Positions 5,951 to 56,685 of a DNA stretch of 64,000 bases are shown here, in pieces. The stretch is from assembly GCA_963660075.1 (NCBI GenBank), contig CAVKWN010000003.1:4517-68516 (forward strand), read 5' to 3'. Under the pieces are notes generated by a model. The model had not been told where the DNA came from. It did no database searches and saw only the letters and a list, made by a program, of their open reading frames with translations. Every line of letters starts with the position of its first letter. The stretch's first letter is position 1. Made by a program: the position numbers and the translations under genes. The DNA is from Lachnospiraceae bacterium (GTDB lineage Bacteria > Bacteroidota > Bacteroidia > Bacteroidales > Bacteroidaceae).

Positions 5951-7285
5951 CTATTTTTTCTTAACAGGCTTAAACACCAAAGCGAACGCCAAGCCTACAG
6001 CTAATGCGAAACCTGCAAATATGAACCAGCATGATTGCCAATCTCCCATAAGGTAAGAACTCTCACCTTTTTGCGTCCATGAACAGAAGTTGTTTACAAT
6101 AGCTCCTGCCGACAATGTGCCTATCGTCGCGCCTATGCCATTTGTCATAAGCATGAACAACCCTTGCGCAGAAGCCTTAATGGATGGATCACACTCTTGG
6201 TCAACAAATATACCTCCAGAAACATTGAAAAAGTCGAATGCCACTCCATAGACAATGCAAGAAAGAATGAAGCAAATCACACCAGGCATTGTCGGGTTGC
6301 CAACTCCAAAGAAGGCAAAGCGCGCTACCCAAGCAAACATCGCTATCAGCATTACGCTCTTAATGCCATACCGCTTGAGAAAGAATGGTATCAACAAAAT
6401 ACAGAAAGCCTCGCTAACCTGTGATATTGATGTAAGCAATGTGGCGTTGCTAGCGGCAAATGAAGTTGCGATGGCAGGATCCGAACTGCCTTGAAAACTG
6501 GAAATGAAAGGTCCGGCAAAACTATTAGTGACCTGAAGGGACATTCCCAACAATGCCGAGAAGATAAAGAACAAAGCCATGCGACGCTCTTTAAACAACT
6601 TGAATGCATCAAGACCAAGCAACTGAGCCAAAGACTTTTTCTCTGAGCATACACTTCGCACGATCTTACATTGGGGAAGTGTGAACACGTACAAGAACAT
6701 AACAAGGCTCAACAAGCCAGAAACGAGAAACTGGTTATAGGTATATTGGAACTTGTGAGCGTTCTGTGAAAGTGTCATTGAGAACACGCCGTTGTCCCAC
6801 GTAGCGCAATTAACAAACCACATGACAACGATGAAACCTACCGTTCCACAAGAACGAATCGGAGGGAAATCTGTAACAGTATCTCCCCCGTTATTCTTCA
6901 ATACGGTAAAGGCCGTAGTGTTAGACAATGCCAATGTTGGCATATAGAACGCCACGCTTAACGTATACAGAGCTATAAAAAGTGATTTGTCAGCCACTTG
7001 ATTTCCAAAGCCAGCGTTCATTCCTATGCCCCAAAGCGATAACATGAATACGCCTGCAACTAAATGACACAAGCCCAAAAGACGTTGTGGTTGAATCCAT
7101 TTGTCGGCGACTATGCCTATCAACGTTGGCATGAAAATGGAGACAATGCCTTGAATGGCGTAGAACCATGAAATCTCGGCTCCCATGCCTGCTACGCCAA
7201 GATAATTACCCATGCAAGTAAGGTAGGCTCCCCAAACGCCAAACTCAAGGAATGTCAACACCGACAAGCGTATTTTCAAGTTCAT
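5951..7285 (-). CDS. Nucleoside permease, NupG/XapB-type MFS transporter
   Basis: 444 aa, about 12 TM helices. The N-terminus MNLKIRLSVLTFLEFGVWGAY resembles nucleoside:H+ symporters. Confidence 0.75.
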   Translation of the reverse strand: MNLKIRLSVLTFLEFGVWGAYLTCMGNYLGVAGMGAEISWFYAIQGIVSIFMPTLIGIVADKWIQPQRLLGLCHLVAGVFMLSLWGIGMNAGFGNQVADKSLFIALYTLSVAFYMPTLALSNTTAFTVLKNNGGDTVTDFPPIRSCGTVGFIVVMWFVNCATWDNGVFSMTLSQNAHKFQYTYNQFLVSGLLSLVMFLYVFTLPQCKIVRSVCSEKKSLAQLLGLDAFKLFKERRMALFFIFSALLGMSLQVTNSFAGPFISSFQGSSDPAIATSFAASNATLLTSISQVSEAFCILLIPFFLKRYGIKSVMLIAMFAWVARFAFFGVGNPTMPGVICFILSCIVYGVAFDFFNVSGGIFVDQECDPSIKASAQGLFMLMTNGIGATIGTLSAGAIVNNFCSWTQKGESSYLMGDWQSCWFIFAGFALAVGLAFALVFKPVKKK

Positions 7286-7496: not shown

Positions 7497-8105
7497 ATGG
7501 AGAATTACACAAAGTCACTTATGGAAATGAGTGATGAAGAACTTGCGGTTTGCTATATGAGGGGCGAAGACAAGGCTTTTAACCTTTTATTGGAACACAA
7601 CAAGTCAAAGCTTTTTTCATATATATATTATGTGGTGCATGATGAAGATCTAGCCAACGATTTGTTTCAGGATACATTCATCAAGATTATCACCAAGTTG
7701 CGTAATAGCATGTACACGCCGACAGGCAAATTCCATTCATGGTGTTTGCGTATCGCGCATAATGTCATTATGGATAACTTCCGCACTGCCAAGAACTGCA
7801 ATATCGTTGAACCAACCGAAGACAACGATCTAACCAACATTCACAACAGCAATGTTGAGGAAATGAACATCGAGCGGATGTTTATAAACAGGCAGATATT
7901 GGAAGACGCCAAAAACATAATGAACAATCTTCCCGCATCACAGCGCGAGGTTGTCTATATGCGTTTTTTCCAACAGATGTCTTTCAAGGAAATCTCCGAA
8001 GCCACAAACGTTAGCATCAACACTGCTTTAGGCAGAATGAGATATGCCCTGCTTAACATGCGCAGAATGGCACACGATCACAACATAAACTTGTACATAT
8101 ATTAA
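7497..8105 (+). CDS. RNA polymerase sigma-70 family (ECF-like) sigma factor with no adjacent anti-sigma gene
   Basis: Region 2-like DLFQDTFIKI...WCLRIAHNVIMDNFR and region 4 HTH MSFKEISEATNVSINTALGRMRYAL. Confidence 0.8.
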   Translation: MENYTKSLMEMSDEELAVCYMRGEDKAFNLLLEHNKSKLFSYIYYVVHDEDLANDLFQDTFIKIITKLRNSMYTPTGKFHSWCLRIAHNVIMDNFRTAKNCNIVEPTEDNDLTNIHNSNVEEMNIERMFINRQILEDAKNIMNNLPASQREVVYMRFFQQMSFKEISEATNVSINTALGRMRYALLNMRRMAHDHNINLYIY

Positions 8106-8190: not shown

Positions 8191-9252
8191 TTAATTCTTC
8201 TCAAGATATTCCGCAATCCAAGAGCCAACTTCCTTGGTTCCGTAGTGTTCGCCTTCTTCAACCTGAATTTCAGGAGTTCGGACATTGTTAAGCAGACTTG
8301 CGTCGCATGCCTTGCGAATTGCGGCACCTTCTTCCTTGAGACCGAAATGCTCAAGCATCATTGCTGCAGAAAGTATTTCGGCAAGAGGATTGGCAATGTT
8401 CTTTCCAGCAGCTTGAGGCCAAGAGCCATGTACAGGCTCGAAAAGTGGAGTGTGCTCGCCAAGAGAAGCGGATGGCTGCAAGCCCATCGAACCGGTAATG
8501 GCCGATGTCTCATCGGTAAGGATGTCGCCAAAGGTATTCTCGGTAACAATGACATCAAAGAAACGTGGCTCTGTCAATACTCGCATTGAGGCATTGTCGA
8601 TGAACATATAGTCTACTGTCACCTCTGGGTATTGTGGCTCCATCTCCTTGGCAATCTGCCTCCAAAGACGTGAACTGGCAAGCACGTTAGCCTTGTCAAC
8701 TACCGTCAGGTGCTTGTTGCGTCGCATGGCAAACTGGAAAGCCACCTTCAGGATACGCTCAATCTCTGGACGGTAATATATGTCCGTGTCATAAGCTTTC
8801 TCATTGTCCTGGTATTTCTCTCCGAAATACATTCCACCGGTCAGCTCACGTATGACCACGAAATCGGCACCCTTGATAAGGTTCTCTTTCAAAGGGCTCT
8901 TATGCAATAAGCAGTCGAACGTGGCCACGGGACGGACATTGGCAAAAAGTCCAAGCTTCTTGCGCATTGCGAGCAAACCTGTCTCTGGGCGAACTTTCAA
9001 TGTAGGATTGTTGTCGAAACGTGGGTCGCCGACAGCAGCGAACAAAACGGCATCAGCGTCCATGCAAATCTTGAACGTCTCGTCGGGGAACGGGTCACCA
9101 CAAGCGTCAATCGCATGAGCTCCGCAAAGGCCCTCTGTGTAAGTGAACTTATGGCCAAACTTCTTTGCCACGACATCCAATACCTTAATGGCCTCTGGCA
9201 TAATTTCCGGGCCAATGCCATCGCCCGGAAGAACTGCAATTTTCAAATTCAT
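8191..9252 (-). CDS. leuB: 3-isopropylmalate dehydrogenase
   Basis: 353 aa. [20 protein letters not shown] motif of the isocitrate/isopropylmalate dehydrogenase family. Last gene of the leu operon. Confidence 0.92.
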
Positions 9253-9282
9253 TGGTTTATATTTTATTGTTTCCAGTATTTA

Positions 9283-10827
9283 TTATGACAAACTGACGGT
9301 TTCTTCAACCATATTCAGCATCTTAATAGTGGCCTGTATGGCAGCTTCTGTCTGGTCTGCGTCAAGTCCGCGCGTTCGCCATTGTTTTTCTCCGTCAGTC
9401 CATGTGATTACAGTCTGTACGAGAGCGTCGGTACGACCACCAGGTGGAATGGTTACAGCATAGTTTTGCAAGAGTGGGAACGTGCGGTTGAGCTTTTCCT
9501 TGTAAATCTTACGCAATGCCCTTACAAAGGCATCATACTGACCATCACCTGTTGAATCGGCTTCGTAATCCTTACCGTTGATGCTAACCTTTAGGCTTGC
9601 TATAGGTTTCAGTCCATAACTCGTTGAAACCATGTAGCTCACAAGTTTTACCCTTTGCTCTGGCGAGGTGTGTTTCAGCACGTCGCTTACAATGTATGGC
9701 AGGTCGTCTTGGGTAACGAGCTGTTTTCTGTCACCCAATTCCGTAATGCGCTGAGTTACCGCCTTTGTTTGCTCCTTTGTCAGCTCTAAGCCAATGTCCT
9801 CAAGGTTTCTCACGATATTAGCCTTGCCCGAGTTCTTGCCCAACGCGAATTCACGATGCCTGCCAAAACGCTCTGGTACCAAAGTGTTGCTATAAAGGTG
9901 TGCCTTGTTGTCACCATCGGCATGGACACCGGCAACCTGAGTAAACACGTTCTCACCAATCACAGGCGTGTTCGGCGAATAAGAGATGCCACTGTAGCCA
10001 GCTACAACATTGCTTATTTCCATGAGTGTAGACTCGTCGATATGCTCTTTCACATGCATTTGGTCTTTCAACATCACGTGAATGCTGCTCAATGGCGCAT
10101 TGCCGCAACGTTCCCCAAGGCCGTTCACCGTGACGTGCAATCCTGAGCAGCCAGCCTCAACAGCCATAAGAGAGTTGCCCACGGCCATGTCATAATCGTT
10201 ATGGGCATGGAACTCAAACTTCTGGTCAGGATATTTATCGGTCATGGCTTTCACATACTCATAAGAGTTTAATGGGTTGAGGATTCCAAGCGTGTCGGGC
10301 AGAAGAAACCTTACTATGCCTTCGTCTTTCAATGAATCCATCATGCCCCAAACGTAATCGCGACTGTCCCTCATGCCTTGCGACCAATCCTCAAGATAGA
10401 GGTTTACCGCCATTCCCTTGGAATGAGCATAAGCAATAACCGACTTTATATCGCTGACATGTTCTTCAAGAGTCTTTTTAAGTTGATACTGGCAATGTCT
10501 CAAGGAACCTTTTGCCAACAGGTTTACCGTCTTGCAATCGCATTCGATAATCCAGTCGACAGATTTTGTGCCATCAACGAATCCCAACACTTCTACCCTA
10601 TCGAGCATTCCGTGCTGCTGTGCATAGTTGCATATCATGCGGACGGCCTCTTTCTCGCCGTCAGACACTCTCGCGGAGGCCACCTCTATGCGGTCAACTC
10701 CAACGTCAGACAAGAGGTAGCGAGCAATCATGAGCTTCTCATGAGGCAAGAAGCTCACGCCATTGGTCTGCTCACCATCGCGAAGAGTAGAGTCCATTAT
10801 CTCTATTTCGCGTTCCTGATTTTTCAT
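9283..10827 (-). CDS. cimA: LeuA paralogue, probable (R)-citramalate synthase
   Basis: LRDGEQ and HAHNDYDMAVGNS motifs (HMGL-like TIM barrel) plus a C-terminal LeuA-type regulatory domain. It is the second such gene in the same operon as a bona fide leuA. The cimA call is inference. Confidence 0.6.
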   Translation of the reverse strand: MKNQEREIEIMDSTLRDGEQTNGVSFLPHEKLMIARYLLSDVGVDRIEVASARVSDGEKEAVRMICNYAQQHGMLDRVEVLGFVDGTKSVDWIIECDCKTVNLLAKGSLRHCQYQLKKTLEEHVSDIKSVIAYAHSKGMAVNLYLEDWSQGMRDSRDYVWGMMDSLKDEGIVRFLLPDTLGILNPLNSYEYVKAMTDKYPDQKFEFHAHNDYDMAVGNSLMAVEAGCSGLHVTVNGLGERCGNAPLSSIHVMLKDQMHVKEHIDESTLMEISNVVAGYSGISYSPNTPVIGENVFTQVAGVHADGDNKAHLYSNTLVPERFGRHREFALGKNSGKANIVRNLEDIGLELTKEQTKAVTQRITELGDRKQLVTQDDLPYIVSDVLKHTSPEQRVKLVSYMVSTSYGLKPIASLKVSINGKDYEADSTGDGQYDAFVRALRKIYKEKLNRTFPLLQNYAVTIPPGGRTDALVQTVITWTDGEKQWRTRGLDADQTEAAIQATIKMLNMVEETVSLS

Positions 10828-11423
10828 TATCGCTTGTTATTTTCTTCCCATGCTTCTACCTTGTCACGGTTCTGCACGAGGAAATCAACATCATCGAGAC
10901 CATTCTCTAAACAATGTTTCTTGTAACCGTTTATCTCAAAATGCTCATTGCGGCCCGTTGCGAGATTTGTCACGGTCTGGTTTGGCAAGTCTACCTTAAC
11001 CTGAGTCGTATGATAATTATTAATACACGTAAACAGCTCACTAAGGAAATCTTCCGACACAACAACCGGGAGCACGAAGTTGTTGAGCTCATTGTTCTTG
11101 TGGATATCAGCGAAGAAAGAACTGATTACCACGCGGAAACCATAACCAGCTATTGCCCAGGCAGCATGCTCACGCGAAGAACCAGAACCAAAGTTCTTGC
11201 CGGCTACCAAGATGACAGCATCCTTGAAGTCGGGATTGTTGAGCACAAAGTCTTTCTTCTCAGAGCCATCAGCATTGAAACGCCAATCGCGGAAAAGATA
11301 TGGGCCGAAACCGTCTTTTTGGGTCAATTTGAGGTAACGTGCCGGTATTATCTGGTCTGTATCAACGTTCTCCAAAGGAAGTGGCACACACGTTGAGGTG
11401 ATGATATTAAATTTCTGCTTCAT
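10827..11423 (-). CDS. leuD: 3-isopropylmalate dehydratase small subunit
   Basis: 198 aa. GKNFGSGSSREHA motif. Adjacent to leuC. Confidence 0.92.
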   Translation of the reverse strand: MKQKFNIITSTCVPLPLENVDTDQIIPARYLKLTQKDGFGPYLFRDWRFNADGSEKKDFVLNNPDFKDAVILVAGKNFGSGSSREHAAWAIAGYGFRVVISSFFADIHKNNELNNFVLPVVVSEDFLSELFTCINNYHTTQVKVDLPNQTVTNLATGRNEHFEINGYKKHCLENGLDDVDFLVQNRDKVEAWEENNKR

Positions 11424-11425
11424 GA

Positions 11426-12817
11426 TTATAGAGTTCTGGGATCTGTTATTTTACCTGTTAATGCCGCTGCCGCTGCCACAAGTGGGCTCGCGAGAATCGT
11501 ACGGCTTCCAGGCCCTTGTCGTCCCTCAAAGTTGCGGTTGCTTGTTGAGACGCTATACTTGCCTGCCGGCACCTTGTCGTCGTTCATGGCAAGGCAAGCC
11601 GAGCAACCGGGTTGGCGAATGGCGAAGCCTGCCTCTTCAAGTATCTTGTCAAGACCCTCTTCCTCTATCTGCTTTGCCACGAGATGTGAACCAGGCACAA
11701 GCCATGCTACAACATTCTCGGCCTTATGCTTTCCTTTTACAATCTCGGTAAAGGCACGGAAATCCTCGATGCGTCCATTGGTACATGCGCCTAGGAACAC
11801 GTAATCTATTGGATGGCCAAGCAACTTCTCGCCTGGCTCGAAGCCCATGTATTTCAAGCTCTTTTCAAAACCAGCTTGCTCTGCCTCGGGTATCTCGTCA
11901 AGTGTAGGAATTGAGCCATTGATTGCGATGCCCATGCCGGGATTGGTTCCATAGGTGATTCGAGGCTCAATATCGTCGGCATCGAAGACAAGTTCCTTGT
12001 CGAAAACGGCATCCTCGCCGCTCTTCAATGTCTTCCAATAGGCCACGGCCTTATCCCATTCAGCGCCCTTAGGTGCATATTCACGTCCCTTGATATATTC
12101 GAACGTGGTCTCGTCGGGAGCCACGAAGCCACCACGTGCACCCATCTCTATGGAAAGATTGCACAGGGTCAAACGGCCGTCCATGGTCATGTCGCGAACC
12201 ACGTCGCCTGCATATTCCACAAAATAGCCCGTCGCACCAGATGTGGTGAGCTTGCTCATGAGATAGAGAGCCACGTCTTTAGCGGTTACACCTGGCTTCA
12301 ACTTGCCGTTTACACTTATGCGCATCGACTTTGGTTTTTGCTGCAATATGCATTGCGACGCGAGCACCATCTCTACCTCGGAAGTGCCGATACCGAAGGC
12401 TACTGCTCCAACGGCACCATGGGTTGACGTATGGCTGTCGCCACAAACTATCGTCATGCCGGGTAAAGAGAGAGCCTTTTCGGGACCTACTACGTGGATG
12501 ATACCATTATCCTCGGTGTTATACTTAAACTCTGTCAAGCCAAACTCATCACAGTTCTTGTCGAGCGTATCAATCTGTTTCTTGCCCACTGGATCTGCGA
12601 CAGGCTTGTCTTGGTCATGGGTCTGTGTATTATGGTCTGGCATAAAGATGTTCTGTTTTGGACGGAACACCTTCAAGCCACGCTGGCGAAGTCCGTCAAA
12701 AGCCTGCGGAGTTGTTACCTCATGGCCATAAAGACGGTCTATGTAAAGTTGGGTGGGACCGTCCTCGACGATCTGAACAACGTGACTGTCCCAAATCTTG
12801 TCAAAAAGTGTATTCAT
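11426..12817 (-). CDS. leuC: 3-isopropylmalate dehydratase large subunit
   Basis: Aconitase-family motifs CGDSHT, GACTNGR and [10 protein letters not shown] (cluster cysteines). Confidence 0.93.
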
Positions 12818-12844
12818 AATATTTTTGCTGAATCTAATGCCTTT

Positions 12845-14344
12845 TTATTTGCGAAACTTATTGATACAGTCGAGATATGCCTCAACAGAAGCAGTCACGA
12901 TATCGGTGTTGGCACCAAAGCCATAGTAGACGTGCCCGTCATACTCCACCTGCATGTGAACCTTACCGACATCATCCGAACCTTGCGTGATGGCTTGAAT
13001 GGTAAACTCCTTCAATGTCATTTGCCTATGGATAATTCGCTTGAGAGCCTTGATTGCCGCATCAACCGGACCATTGCCAGTAGCGCTTTCCTCAAACTTC
13101 TCGCCAGCGATATCAAGACCTACGCTTGCCACGTTGCGAACACCCTTACCTGCTGTCACCTGCAAATAATCGAGCTTTACAGAATGAGAATCTGCCTTGT
13201 CGGCTCCCGCAAGCATCAACACGTCGTCGTCTGTGATTTCCTTCTTGCGGTCAGCAAGCTTAAGGAACTCTTCGTAAATCTTGTCCAATCGGCTTTGATC
13301 CTTGATGTCAACGCCGTTGGCTTCCAATCTGTATTTGAGGGCCGCACGACCCGAACGCGCCGTAAGCACGATCTCGTTGTTCTCCAAACCTATGTCCTTT
13401 GGATCGATAATCTCATAGGTCTGAACGTTTTTAAGCACGCCATCCTGGTGGATACCCGAAGAGTGAGCGAAGGCGTTGCGGCCAACGATTGCCTTGTTAG
13501 GTTGTACGGGCATGTTCATCAACGAAGACACCATGCGCGAGACAGGATAGATCTTGCGAGTATTGATATTGGTGTTTATGGCAACGTTCTTGTGGCATTT
13601 CAGAATCATGGCTATTTCCTCCAACGAGGTGTTGCCGGCACGCTCACCAATGCCGTTGATGGTCACTTCAACCTGACGGGCTCCGTTCAATACGCCTTCA
13701 AGTGTGTTGGCGGTGGCCATGCCAAGGTCGTTGTGGCAGTGGGTCGAAATTATTGCCTTGTCGATATTGTCAACATGCTCCTTGAGATACTTTATTTTCG
13801 CGCCGTACTCGCTGGGCAAGCAATAGCCGGTTGTATCTGGAATGTTGACCACTGTAGCACCGGCCTTTATGACGGCTTCCACCACCTGGGCAAGATATTC
13901 GTTGTCGGTGCGACCAGCGTCCTCGGCATAGAACTCCACGTCCTCGACATACTTCTTAGCGTAAGCCACAGATCGCACTGCACGCTCGAGAATATCCTCT
14001 CGGTTGCTGTTGAACTTGTACTTGATATGATAATCGCTCGTGCCTAATCCGGTATGTATTCTCTTGTGTTTGGCAAACTTCAATGCCTCGGCAGCACAGT
14101 CGATATCCTTCTCCACGGCACGTGTCAAAGCGCAAATCGTTGGCCATGTCACGGCCTTGCTTATCTCTACCACCGAATTGAAATCGCCTGGCGATGATAT
14201 TGGGAAGCCAGCCTCAATGACGTCAACGCCAAGAAGTTCAAGCTGCTTGGCCACCTGAATCTTCTCAATGGTGTTTAATTGGCAACCTGGCACCTGCTCG
14301 CCATCACGAAGCGTCGTATCAAAAATATAAAGTCTCTCACTCAT
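12845..14344 (-). CDS. leuA: 2-isopropylmalate synthase
   Basis: 499 aa. LRDGEQ and [13 protein letters not shown] motifs plus a C-terminal LeuA dimer/regulatory domain. Confidence 0.9.
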
Positions 14345-14399
14345 AATTAAGTTGTGATTAACGTAATATGTAATTAATTATTTCTATCCCTTTATTTTG

Positions 14400-14437
14400 A
14401 AAGCAAAAAGCCTTTCCACTTATGGAAGTGGAAAGGC
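14400..14437 (-). terminator. Intrinsic terminator in the leu leader (candidate attenuator terminator)
   Basis: On the minus strand: GCCTTTCCACTT, loop CCAT, AAGTGGAAAGGC (perfect 12-bp stem), then TTTTTGCTTTC. It lies 55 nt upstream of the leuA ATG. Confidence 0.7.
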
Positions 14438-14487
14438 CTTGCTATCGTATGTTTTATCAAGCATGCACACACGCCCATTCACTTCCA
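14423..14487 (-). promoter_or_regulatory. Candidate antiterminator pairing in the leu leader
   Basis: UGGAAGUGAAUGGGC (14487..14473, leader codons 20-25) can pair with GCCUUUCCACUUCCA (14437..14423, terminator 5' arm plus loop) at 13 of 15 positions by hand alignment. This is mutually exclusive with the terminator. Confidence 0.5.
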
Positions 14488-14546
14488 ACCGTTACACGCA
14501 GTCGAATGCTTAGAATAATGCTAATTATGGCGATAAGTGCTGTCAT
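14457..14546 (-). CDS. Candidate leu/ilv-type leader peptide, 29 aa
   Basis: Hand translation gives MTALIAIISIILSIRLRVTVGSEWACVHA. 11 of codons 4-20 are Ile (6), Leu (3) or Val (2). It sits between a -7 box and a terminator upstream of leuA, with an A-rich stretch before the ATG. Confidence 0.55.
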   Translation of the reverse strand: MTALIAIISIILSIRLRVTVGSEWACVHA

Positions 14547-14576
14547 TTCTTTTTATGCTATTTTCTTTAACGGTTG

Positions 14577-14584
14577 CAAAGGTA
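14577..14584 (-). promoter_or_regulatory. -7 promoter box TACCTTTG for the leu leader and operon
   Basis: Exact TAnnTTTG about 30 nt upstream of the leader ATG 14546 and downstream of the dnaB stop. Confidence 0.45.
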
Positions 14585-14646
14585 AACATTTGTCGTGATA
14601 TAAACAAATAATCTATTATTTTTTTGCTATGTTTCGTTATAATCTA

Positions 14647-16146
14647 TCAGAATGGAGTGTTTATCTCACCACCAAGAGGGTCATCGTCGTTGCCAAGCCG
14701 CGAGCCGATTATCTCTCCTCCCAAGTTGTCAACCAATGGTGTAAGCATTGTATCCTCCGGATTGGCAAAGCGCGTATACTGTCCTTGGAAGGAGAGCAAC
14801 ACGTCGCCCGTGGCACCTTTACGGTGCTTGGCAATGATGATTTGTGCCTTTCCTCGCAGGTCATTTCCTTTTTCGTCTTGATAAAGATGGTAATACTCGG
14901 GGCGGTGAACGAAAAGCACCATGTCGGCATCCTGCTCGATGGCTCCAGATTCTCGCAAGTCGCTCAGCTGAGGCCTTTTGCCTTCCAGTCCCTCTCGGTT
15001 TTCCACAGTACGGTTAAGCTGTGAGAGAGCTATCACGGGTATGTCAAGTTCTTTTGCGAGACCTTTAAGAGAACGAGATATGGTAGACACCTCCTCTTGG
15101 CGATTGCCAAAACGGGCTCCACTCGCGTTCATAAGCTGAAGGTAGTCTATCATGATTAGCTTCACACCTTTTTCACGTACTAGGCGGCGGGCCTTGGTAC
15201 GAAGCTCAAAGATTGACATGCCCGGCGTGTCGTCAACATACAACGGAACGCCCGTGAGCTTCGACAAACGTTTGTCGAATCTGTCCCATTCGTCACGGCT
15301 CAACTGACCGTTCATGATTTTCTTTCCCTCAATCTCGCACACATTACTTATTAAGCGGTCTACAAGCTGCACGTTGTTCATCTCAAGCGAGAAGAAAGCC
15401 ACAGGCTCACGATAGTCGACCGTTATGTTCTTTGCTATTGACAAAGCGAACGACGTCTTACCCATTGCAGGGCGACCGGCAATGATGACTAGGTCACTCT
15501 TCTGCCACCCTGAGGTCATGTCGTCGAGCTTGGTAAAGCCTGTTGGCAATCCCGTCAGACCAGTGCTGTTTGACGATGCTTTTTGTATGATGTCCACGGC
15601 TTGGCGCACCACAGGGTCAATCTGCGTGTAGTCTTGCCGCATGTTTTTCCGTGAAATCTCGAACAGCGAACCTTCCGCCTCTTGCATGAGCTCGTCAGTG
15701 TCGACCATAGGGTCAAAGGCAGACGTTTCTATCTTGCTGGCAAAAGAGATGAGCTGGCGTGCCATGTATTTCTGCTGGAGTATCTTGGCGTGATACTGTA
15801 TGTTGGCAGCCGAGCCAACATGCGAAGCAAGATCCACTACGTAGGTAGGTCCGCCAATGCTTTCAAGGTTGCCTTCTTTCTCAAGCTCATTGGTCACGGT
15901 GAGAATATCCACTGGATTTTCTTCGACGTTGAGATTGCGAATGGCAGCGAATATCTTTTGATGTCGTGGCTCATAGAATGTATCGGGCACCAATGTCTCG
16001 GAGACAATGGAAAAAGCGTCCTTGTCAATCATCAGCGCGCCAAGCACAACTTTTTCTATATCAAGTGCTTGTGGTTGAAGGTGACCATAAGTCGAGTCTA
16101 TCGGGGAGGATGCCTTGCGGCGTGTATTCTTGCTAGGTTCTGCCAT
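14647..16146 (-). CDS. dnaB: Replicative DNA helicase DnaB
   Basis: 499 aa. Walker A GRPAMGKTSF. N-terminal DnaB domain (LPQALDIEKVVLGALM...). Confidence 0.93.
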   Translation of the reverse strand: MAEPSKNTRRKASSPIDSTYGHLQPQALDIEKVVLGALMIDKDAFSIVSETLVPDTFYEPRHQKIFAAIRNLNVEENPVDILTVTNELEKEGNLESIGGPTYVVDLASHVGSAANIQYHAKILQQKYMARQLISFASKIETSAFDPMVDTDELMQEAEGSLFEISRKNMRQDYTQIDPVVRQAVDIIQKASSNSTGLTGLPTGFTKLDDMTSGWQKSDLVIIAGRPAMGKTSFALSIAKNITVDYREPVAFFSLEMNNVQLVDRLISNVCEIEGKKIMNGQLSRDEWDRFDKRLSKLTGVPLYVDDTPGMSIFELRTKARRLVREKGVKLIMIDYLQLMNASGARFGNRQEEVSTISRSLKGLAKELDIPVIALSQLNRTVENREGLEGKRPQLSDLRESGAIEQDADMVLFVHRPEYYHLYQDEKGNDLRGKAQIIIAKHRKGATGDVLLSFQGQYTRFANPEDTMLTPLVDNLGGEIIGSRLGNDDDPLGGEINTPF

Positions 16147-56610: not shown

Positions 56611-56685
56611 ATGAAGTTTTACGCAACATATTCCTATTATTATTTCTACTTTGCAAGCAGTTGTGAAGCGGGAAGTTGCGTGTAA
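56611..56685 (+). CDS. Candidate Phe/Tyr leader peptide, 24 aa
   Basis: Hand translation gives MKFYATYSYYYFYFASSCEAGSCV. 9 of codons 3-14 are Tyr (6) or Phe (3). A-rich stretch before the ATG. Followed by a terminator/antiterminator pair and then pheA. Confidence 0.65.
   Translation: MKFYATYSYYYFYFASSCEAGSCV

Follow-up and report, generated by a model that had tools for sequence, protein, structure and literature searches.

A putative leader-peptide attenuator with isoleucine and leucine codons upstream of the leuA operon in Bacteroidales

We analysed a 64-kb stretch of DNA from a Prevotella-like bacterium (contig CAVKWN010000003.1, positions 4,517 to 68,516, 64,000 nucleotides; hereafter the window), and in it the region between dnaB and leuA on the minus strand. 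This region likely carries a ribosome-mediated (leader-peptide) transcription attenuator, which would make expression of the leuA-leuCD-cimA-leuB operon depend on charged tRNA-Ile and tRNA-Leu. Judging from the sequence and its relatives, we put the probability of this reading at about 85%. The evidence consists of a short open reading frame (ORF) rich in Ile and Leu codons, alternative RNA helices overlapping these codons, a predicted intrinsic terminator, and the conservation of all of these upstream of leuA. A first-pass annotation, made from the letters of the window alone, had already proposed a leader peptide with a terminator and an antiterminator at this site.

Leader region and its conservation

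The elements of the leader region are given below in the direction of transcription. The promoter elements and the ORF were read directly, segments 3 and 4 came from a terminator scan, the U-tract from both, and segment 1 from folding.

14605..14608 (-), TTTG, possible -33 promoter element, 20 nt upstream of the -7 box
14577..14584 (-), -7 promoter box TACCTTTG, Bacteroidetes-type (TAnnTTTG)
14547..14570 (-), putative A-rich 5' untranslated region of the leader mini-gene, without Shine-Dalgarno sequence; start deduced from the position of the -7 box
14457..14546 (-), leader ORF, ATG start, 29 codons plus stop, MTALIAIISIILSIRLRVTVGSEWACVHA
14499..14537 (-), regulatory codon zone (codons 4-16), six Ile and three Leu codons, the rare CUA among them
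14499..14517 (-), segment 1, 5' strand of the 1:2 hairpin (UAUUC..GC.UUCGACUG), overlapping Ile, Arg and Leu codons
14473..14491 (-), segment 2, CGGUUGGAAGUGAAUGGGC, 3' strand of the 1:2 hairpin or antiterminator strand to segment 3
14422..14440 (-), segment 3, terminator 5' arm AAGGCCUUUCCACUU plus loop CCAU
14407..14421 (-), segment 4, terminator 3' arm AAGUGGAAAGGCUUU
14399..14409 (-), U-tract UUUUUGCUUUC

The -33 label of the TTTG follows what we take to be the Bacteroides promoter consensus. The -7 box, the 29-codon ORF, the hairpin with its U-tract and the complementary block in the leader were all found where the first-pass annotation had placed them. The hairpin is a perfect 12-bp one (GCCUUUCCACUU, loop CCAU, AAGUGGAAAGGC), located 19 nt past the ORF stop and followed by UUUUUGCUUUC. 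In the terminator scan it stretched to 15 bp (14440-14407), with a stability of about -21 kcal/mol. This GC-rich hairpin with its U-tract is a predicted intrinsic terminator between the leader ORF and leuA, whose ATG (14344) lies 54 nt beyond the end of the tail (14399). Folding of the leader region (181 nt), a check that had been suggested for this site, gave an energy of -49.2 kcal/mol (z = -3.1 relative to shuffled sequences). A scan of the whole window for codon-biased mini-ORFs with a -7 box and a strong terminator returned only the leu site and one Tyr/Phe leader.

Related loci were collected in two ways. A genome scan anchored on LeuA covered 80 loci from Prevotella, Segatella, Phocaeicola and Bacteroides, with 82-91% amino-acid identity. 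In most of them leuA was preceded, at a distance of 30-170 nt, by a homologous mini-ORF and hairpin. The alignment of 55 distinct genome leaders (A1) and the core alignment (A2) contained four nearly invariant blocks, separated by diverged linkers. Their consensus in the genome family was:

Segment 1, AUUAUUAUUCGACUGC, Ile codons plus CGA CUG
Segment 2, GGAAGUGAUAAGG
Segment 3, GCCUUUCUCACUUCC, terminator 5' arm
Segment 4, GUGUGAAAGGCUUUUUU

Within segment 2, GGAAGUGA was at least 90% conserved in the family. The linkers and the peptide N-termini have diverged; what has been kept are the promoter box, the ORF and three RNA blocks complementary to one another. A covariance model (R1) gave matches in 62-65 of 81 sources, all of them located directly before leuA. 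Its single match in the window was at 14400-14526, with 83.9 bits.

The second collection came from a gene-blind scan of metagenomes with the pattern GGAAGTG-N25-55-CCTTTCTCACTTCC, which was found on at least 120 contigs. Among the listed contigs with at least 400 nt downstream, leuA began within the next 350 nt, in the same orientation, in 114 of 116. One exception (L139) was a chance pattern match within a repeat. The other (L151) had a typical leader and terminator (about 8300-8440 of the oriented locus), followed by non-leuA sequence resembling part of a sigma-factor gene, and is probably an assembly chimera or a rearrangement. In both collections together, the comparison of leuA upstream regions that the first-pass annotation had called for yielded an Ile/Leu-rich mini-ORF with alternative pairing in about 170 loci. 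The predicted element is widespread in gut and rumen Bacteroidales (Prevotella, Segatella, Phocaeicola, Bacteroides).

All 55 aligned genome loci had an open ORF of 21-35 codons, with stops in the other two reading frames in 54 and 53 of the 55 leaders, respectively. An ORF of 19-31 codons was found in each of the 112 listed metagenome loci with enough upstream sequence, and the additional R1 matches missed by the first ORF screen all carried an intact Ile/Leu ORF. In 33 of these 112 loci (~30%) the leader used a different frame, in which the UGA inside GGAAGUGA is the stop and the peptides end in ...WERDRK (for example L151, L172 and L155 among L081-L200); L072 and L038 show this frame too. 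Because segment 2 is read in another frame there, the block is conserved as RNA and not as the peptide "GSDKVC". The family would thus have two leader architectures over one RNA design.

Codons 4-20 of the window leader include six Ile, three Leu and two Val. Ile and Leu make up 9 of the 18 codons from 2 to 19, compared with 15% in the neighbouring genes (p = 6e-4), in which Ile, Leu and Val account for 6.4, 8.8 and 7.7% of the codons. The zone preceding segment 2 contained 27.5% Ile, 19.3% Leu and 0.8% Val in the 55 genome leaders, and 24.6, 23.5 and 0.6% in the independent metagenome set (112 listed loci). Codons for Ile and Leu are thus clustered in the regulatory zone of the family, forming about 47-48% of it. 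The leader had been described as rich in Ile, Leu and Val; the first two hold, and Val falls outside the conserved signal. In the window, the Val codons 18, 20 and 27 are found in the loop of the 1:2 hairpin, at the 5' edge of segment 2 and downstream of segment 2. Stalling there would not free segment 2. Across the family, the conserved putative regulatory codons are those for Ile and Leu only.

Codon choice also set the leaders apart from the leuA genes. The rare CUA made up 32% of the Leu codons in leaders and 2% in leuA, the rare CGA 70 and 5% of the Arg codons, and AUU 83 and 33% of the Ile codons. We considered the near-invariant CGA as a sensor or a programmed pause and rejected it. The codon is better explained structurally, because it lies within the 1:2 stem and because leaders of the Bacteroidaceae type have CUA (Leu) in its place, often together with a compensating change at the partner position (pair 24-54).

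Alternative pairings and the proposed switch

Per-sequence folding recovered a conserved hairpin overlapping the Ile codons, which was absent from the first-pass annotation. In this 1:2 hairpin, the Ile-codon run plus UUCGACUGC (segment 1) pairs with G.GGUCGGA-AGUGAUAA (segment 2), in the window 14517-14499 with 14491-14476. Its 5' strand overlaps the regulatory codons, and the hairpin completes the four-segment attenuator design. Both-sided changes were seen in 8 of the 18 pairs of this helix in A2, and in 11 of 18 in A3, an alignment of 100 metagenome matches to the covariance model. When the 1:2 and 3:4 helices were taken together, 81.7% of the cells in A2 were paired (39-59% in slid controls), with 61 double-change cells as compared to 25.8±4.9 in shuffles (0/500 reached this value). 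The values for A3 were 85.4% paired cells and 151 double-change cells, as compared to 77±6 in shuffles (0/500). The terminator helix by itself was paired in 88.9% (A2) and 91.0% (A3) of the cells. From the raw MAFFT alignment, RNAalifold retrieved no more than the lower terminator stem, owing to gaps and to a one-base shift in register between two variants of the terminator; anchored per-sequence folding and pair counts were used instead.

For the antiterminator, a hand alignment in the first-pass annotation had paired a block of the leader with the terminator 5' arm and loop at 13 of 15 positions. The computed pairing agrees: in the window, UGGAAGUGAAUGGGC (14487-14473) forms 13 pairs over 15 positions, including one G-U pair, with a duplex energy of -17.2 kcal/mol. 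Over 52 sequences this 2:3 helix, which is mutually exclusive with the terminator, was 88% paired, as compared to 39-57% in slid controls. About 50 of 55 sequences had duplex energies between -13 and -19 kcal/mol. With segment 1 masked, in imitation of a ribosome stalled on the last Ile codon, and segment 4 omitted, 53 of the 55 sequences folded into 2:3; unmasked, 29 did.

From these elements we infer the transcription start, leader translation, amino-acid-dependent stalling and the choice between termination and read-through, as follows. Transcription would begin at the promoter marked by the -7 box (14584-14577), and a ribosome would translate the 29-codon leader while RNA polymerase moves ahead. 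With plentiful Ile and Leu, the ribosome would reach the stop codon and either occupy segment 2 or let segment 1 re-pair with it; the 3:4 hairpin and the U-tract would then form, and transcription would end before leuA. With scarce Ile-tRNA or Leu-tRNA, the ribosome would stall on the AUU, CUA or CUG codons inside segment 1, leaving segment 2 (GGAAGUGAAUGGGC) free to capture segment 3 once this is made. The 2:3 helix would preclude the terminator, and the polymerase would read into the operon. In the absence of any translation, the 1:2 hairpin would form and the terminator would be the default.

Promoter position, rival explanations and counter-evidence

In 56 of 56 loci the leader was preceded by an exact TAnnTTTG, in most of them at a distance of 17-44 nt from the ATG; between terminator and leuA, the motif occurred in only 1 of 55. 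By this motif, the promoter lies upstream of the leader and none lies directly before the gene. The family therefore bears out the argument, made earlier for the window, that the only recognisable box stands upstream of the hairpin. The position of the box also bears on a simpler explanation, that the hairpin is the intrinsic terminator of dnaB and that the mini-ORF and the complementary block are coincidental. In its favour, dnaB ends at 14647 on the same strand, with no other terminator-like site before the hairpin. Nevertheless, the conserved -7 box lies between dnaB and the hairpin, and the hairpin, ORF and box travel with leuA: no more than 28 of the 80 genome loci and 2 of the 120 listed metagenome loci have dnaB on the upstream side. 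With dnaB in this place in a minority only, the hairpin is not merely the dnaB terminator, and we consider this explanation very unlikely. The element tracks leuA, in line with the first-pass view of the hairpin as conditional.

The terminator could also be conditional and yet be read by a trans-acting factor, such as an RNA-binding protein, an uncharged tRNA as in T-boxes, or a metabolite, with the ORF being incidental. The near-invariant blocks UUCGACU, GGAAGUGA and CCUUUCUCACUUCC could reflect a binding site, and with Shine-Dalgarno-independent initiation in this phylum it is harder to tell from the letters whether the leader is translated. Against this, three-way complementarity by itself accounts for the invariance of the blocks, and no T-box or riboswitch family matched, even at E ≤ 10. 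An incidental ORF would also not be expected to remain open in all of about 170 copies with the other frames closed, to keep its ATG at a fixed distance from the promoter box, to gain Ile codons in frame (L034 compared with L035), or to show an Ile/Leu-specific bias that includes rare codons, and a Val-containing counterpart is found upstream of ilv genes. A trans-acting factor is thus improbable. Still less credible is that the mini-ORF encodes a functional small hydrophobic protein which merely happens to be located upstream of leuA. The peptide is indeed hydrophobic and its ORF conserved, but the N-termini are not, and no Pfam or NCBIfam family was found. The "GSDKVC" part is conserved even at synonymous positions and becomes "..RK" plus stop in the 33 frame-shifted loci, over the same nucleotides, and the ORF is interlocked with the alternative RNA helices.

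Several observations weigh against attenuation at the leu site. A terminator scan from the dnaB stop (14647) to the leader promoter (14585-14646) gave no terminator-like site, so the hairpin may additionally stop read-through from dnaB. The support from A3 comes from an alignment fitted to the model structure, and its loci were gathered with a pattern in which segments 2 and 3 are partly fixed. Of the covarying stems sought in relatives, 1:2 and 3:4 covary; 2:3 does not do so significantly (a score of 0.124 against 0.117, with 55 of 500 shuffles reaching it), due to both strands being nearly invariant. A3 was left out of this last comparison, because the fetch pattern fixes most of the bases concerned. 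Matched three-way changes in segments 2, 3 and 4 (L005, L008, L031) and a GCC/GGC swap (L021) are anecdotal. The predicted antiterminator is therefore backed by conservation and complementarity, and by covariation only anecdotally. In addition, the switch must be kinetic, given that the antiterminator (-17 kcal/mol) is less stable than the terminator (-21 kcal/mol). The stop codon lies 8 nt past segment 2 in most copies and 14 nt past it in the window, where a terminating ribosome would cover segment 2 less well than in most homologues. In the part of the published B. thetaiotaomicron supplements that was covered, the only feature between BT_1862 and leuA was a terminator predicted by computation, and leuA had no listed transcription start. 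Finally, about 16 of the 80 related leuA loci had no detectable leader or attenuator, some despite an upstream dnaB:

leuA loci without the element: L019, L027, L039, L041, L044, L051-L054, L057, L058, L060, L061, L068, L069, L071

Separately, any read-through transcripts from dnaB would run into the attenuator.

The operon, other leaders and known systems

The genes downstream of the leader were identified by NCBIfam matches, as was dnaB, which lies upstream on the same strand.

8191..14344 (-), putatively regulated operon leuA-leuC-leuD-cimA-like-leuB
14344-12845 (-), leuA
12817-11426 (-), leuC
11423-10827 (-), leuD
10827-9283 (-), cimA-like synthase, below the curated CimA cut-off
9252-8191 (-), leuB

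Beyond leuB there are genes for an extracytoplasmic function (ECF)-type sigma factor, 7497-8105 (+), and a nucleoside permease, 5951-7285 (-).

The cimA-like synthase scored 612 bits, relative to an NCBIfam curated CimA cut-off of 950, and resembled the Leptospira CimA over its full length. With a score below the cut-off, it may use either pyruvate or 2-oxoisovalerate as its substrate. The gene order downstream of the element was the same in the metagenome loci as in the window, and the cimA-like gene stood between leuCD and leuB in 46 of 46 long-enough metagenome operons among the matches listed. This strengthens the link that the first-pass annotation had drawn between the leader and an operon with such a paralogue. 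A leader with Ile and Leu and without Val would fit an operon that always carries a cimA-like gene. We hold it at even odds that the leader is chiefly an Ile sensor with Leu as co-signal, and that with the invariable cimA-like gene it marks a dual Ile and Leu (citramalate-route) operon under multivalent attenuation throughout Prevotellaceae and Bacteroidaceae, the separate ilv operon having an Ile/Leu/Val leader of its own. If so, transcription and translation would be tightly coupled in a phylum without Shine-Dalgarno-led initiation.

One metagenome contig (L175) had such a second leader. A weaker second match of the model, at 6501-6640 (+), covered the leader MMNNVLHIILVVVLLVISR, with three Ile, four Leu and five Val codons. 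It lies upstream of ilvD (6701) in an operon ilvD-ilvB-...-ilvC, and a related terminator follows (GCCUUUCUCC..., z = -5.6). The same contig carries a leu leader of the Ile/Leu type, not Val-rich, some 7 kb further downstream. In this single example, the codon content of each putative leader fits the products of its operon.

The window itself contained another leader-like mini-ORF, rich in Tyr and Phe (MKFYATYSYYYFYFASSCEAGSCV, 56611-56685 (+)). It has a -7 box, TAATTTTG, 37 nt upstream and a predicted terminator of -20 kcal/mol, in agreement with the "phe/tyr leader" of the first-pass annotation. It precedes genes for a prephenate dehydratase, an aminotransferase and a DAHP (3-deoxy-D-arabino-heptulosonate 7-phosphate) synthase-like protein (genes to about 60754).

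The leuA element would add a well-defined and very widespread cis-regulatory RNA to the sparse catalogue for Bacteroidales, which are dominant gut and rumen bacteria. Leader codons offer a regulatory readout of pathway function. Here, Ile and Leu without Val argue that the cimA-like synthase feeds isoleucine synthesis via LeuCD and LeuB, with a bearing on models of branched-chain amino acid production in Prevotella. The element may also offer a simple system in which to study intrinsic termination and the coupling of transcription to translation amid atypical promoters and translation initiation, and the covariance model can be used in genome annotation.

Searches for known relatives of the element gave the following. 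With Rfam 15 at gathering thresholds, the whole window had no match, including to Leu_leader, T-box, riboswitch and RF01692 models, and at E ≤ 10 the region 14300-14700 gave unrelated weak matches only. A permissive Rfam match to RsaE on the opposite strand was rejected as chance, caused by the C-rich hairpin. No match was found in a plasmid collection. A literature search did not find the leuA element described, Vitreschak et al. 2004 (PMID 15135544), which may list Bacteroidetes candidates, being outside its coverage; Naville and Gautheret 2010 mention neither Bacteroidetes nor leu. The element thus appears to be an uncurated attenuator, without Rfam, Pfam or NCBIfam match, of an otherwise well-known regulator type.

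This type is exemplified by leuL of E. coli and Salmonella (Rfam Leu_leader). Both share with the element a short leader ORF, clustered regulatory codons including the rare CUA, four segments with 1:2, 2:3 and 3:4 as alternatives, and an intrinsic terminator just before leuA. Rare Leu codons are reportedly a feature of enterobacterial leuL. The window element matched leuL neither in sequence nor by model. Where leuL has four Leu codons, the putative regulatory codons of the element are predominantly Ile (3-7), joined by Leu (1-6). The element further differs in its Bacteroidetes-type promoter, in lacking a Shine-Dalgarno sequence and in preceding an operon that contains a cimA-like gene.

With the ilvGMEDA (ilvL) and thr leaders of E. 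coli, the element would share multivalent control, by codons for more than one amino acid that depends on the operon. Unlike ilvL, which senses Ile, Leu and Val, it excludes Val (0.6-0.8%). The first-pass annotation had likened the "MTAL" start of the window leader to IlvL. This start was not kept among the homologues, and a Pfam and NCBIfam profile search at E ≤ 10 gave no match for the window leader or a Segatella-type leader, so that the likeness is coincidental.

Closer in taxonomy are predictions from the same phylum. The Bacteroid-trp motif (Rfam RF01692) is a predicted leader-peptide attenuator in Bacteroidota (PMC2864571). In Flavobacterium psychrophilum, a 25-aa leader with eight Ile precedes ilvE, and a His-rich hisG leader has also been predicted (PMC9723704 supplement). 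Short ORFs "reminiscent of leader peptides" are described for B. thetaiotaomicron (PMC7366714). The Bacteroid-trp and F. psychrophilum ilvE and hisG leaders, predicted computationally or from transcriptomes, follow the same logic of mini-ORFs with end-product codons. They differ in operon and in sequence, and next to them the leuA element stands as a distinct, tightly conserved Bacteroidales family.

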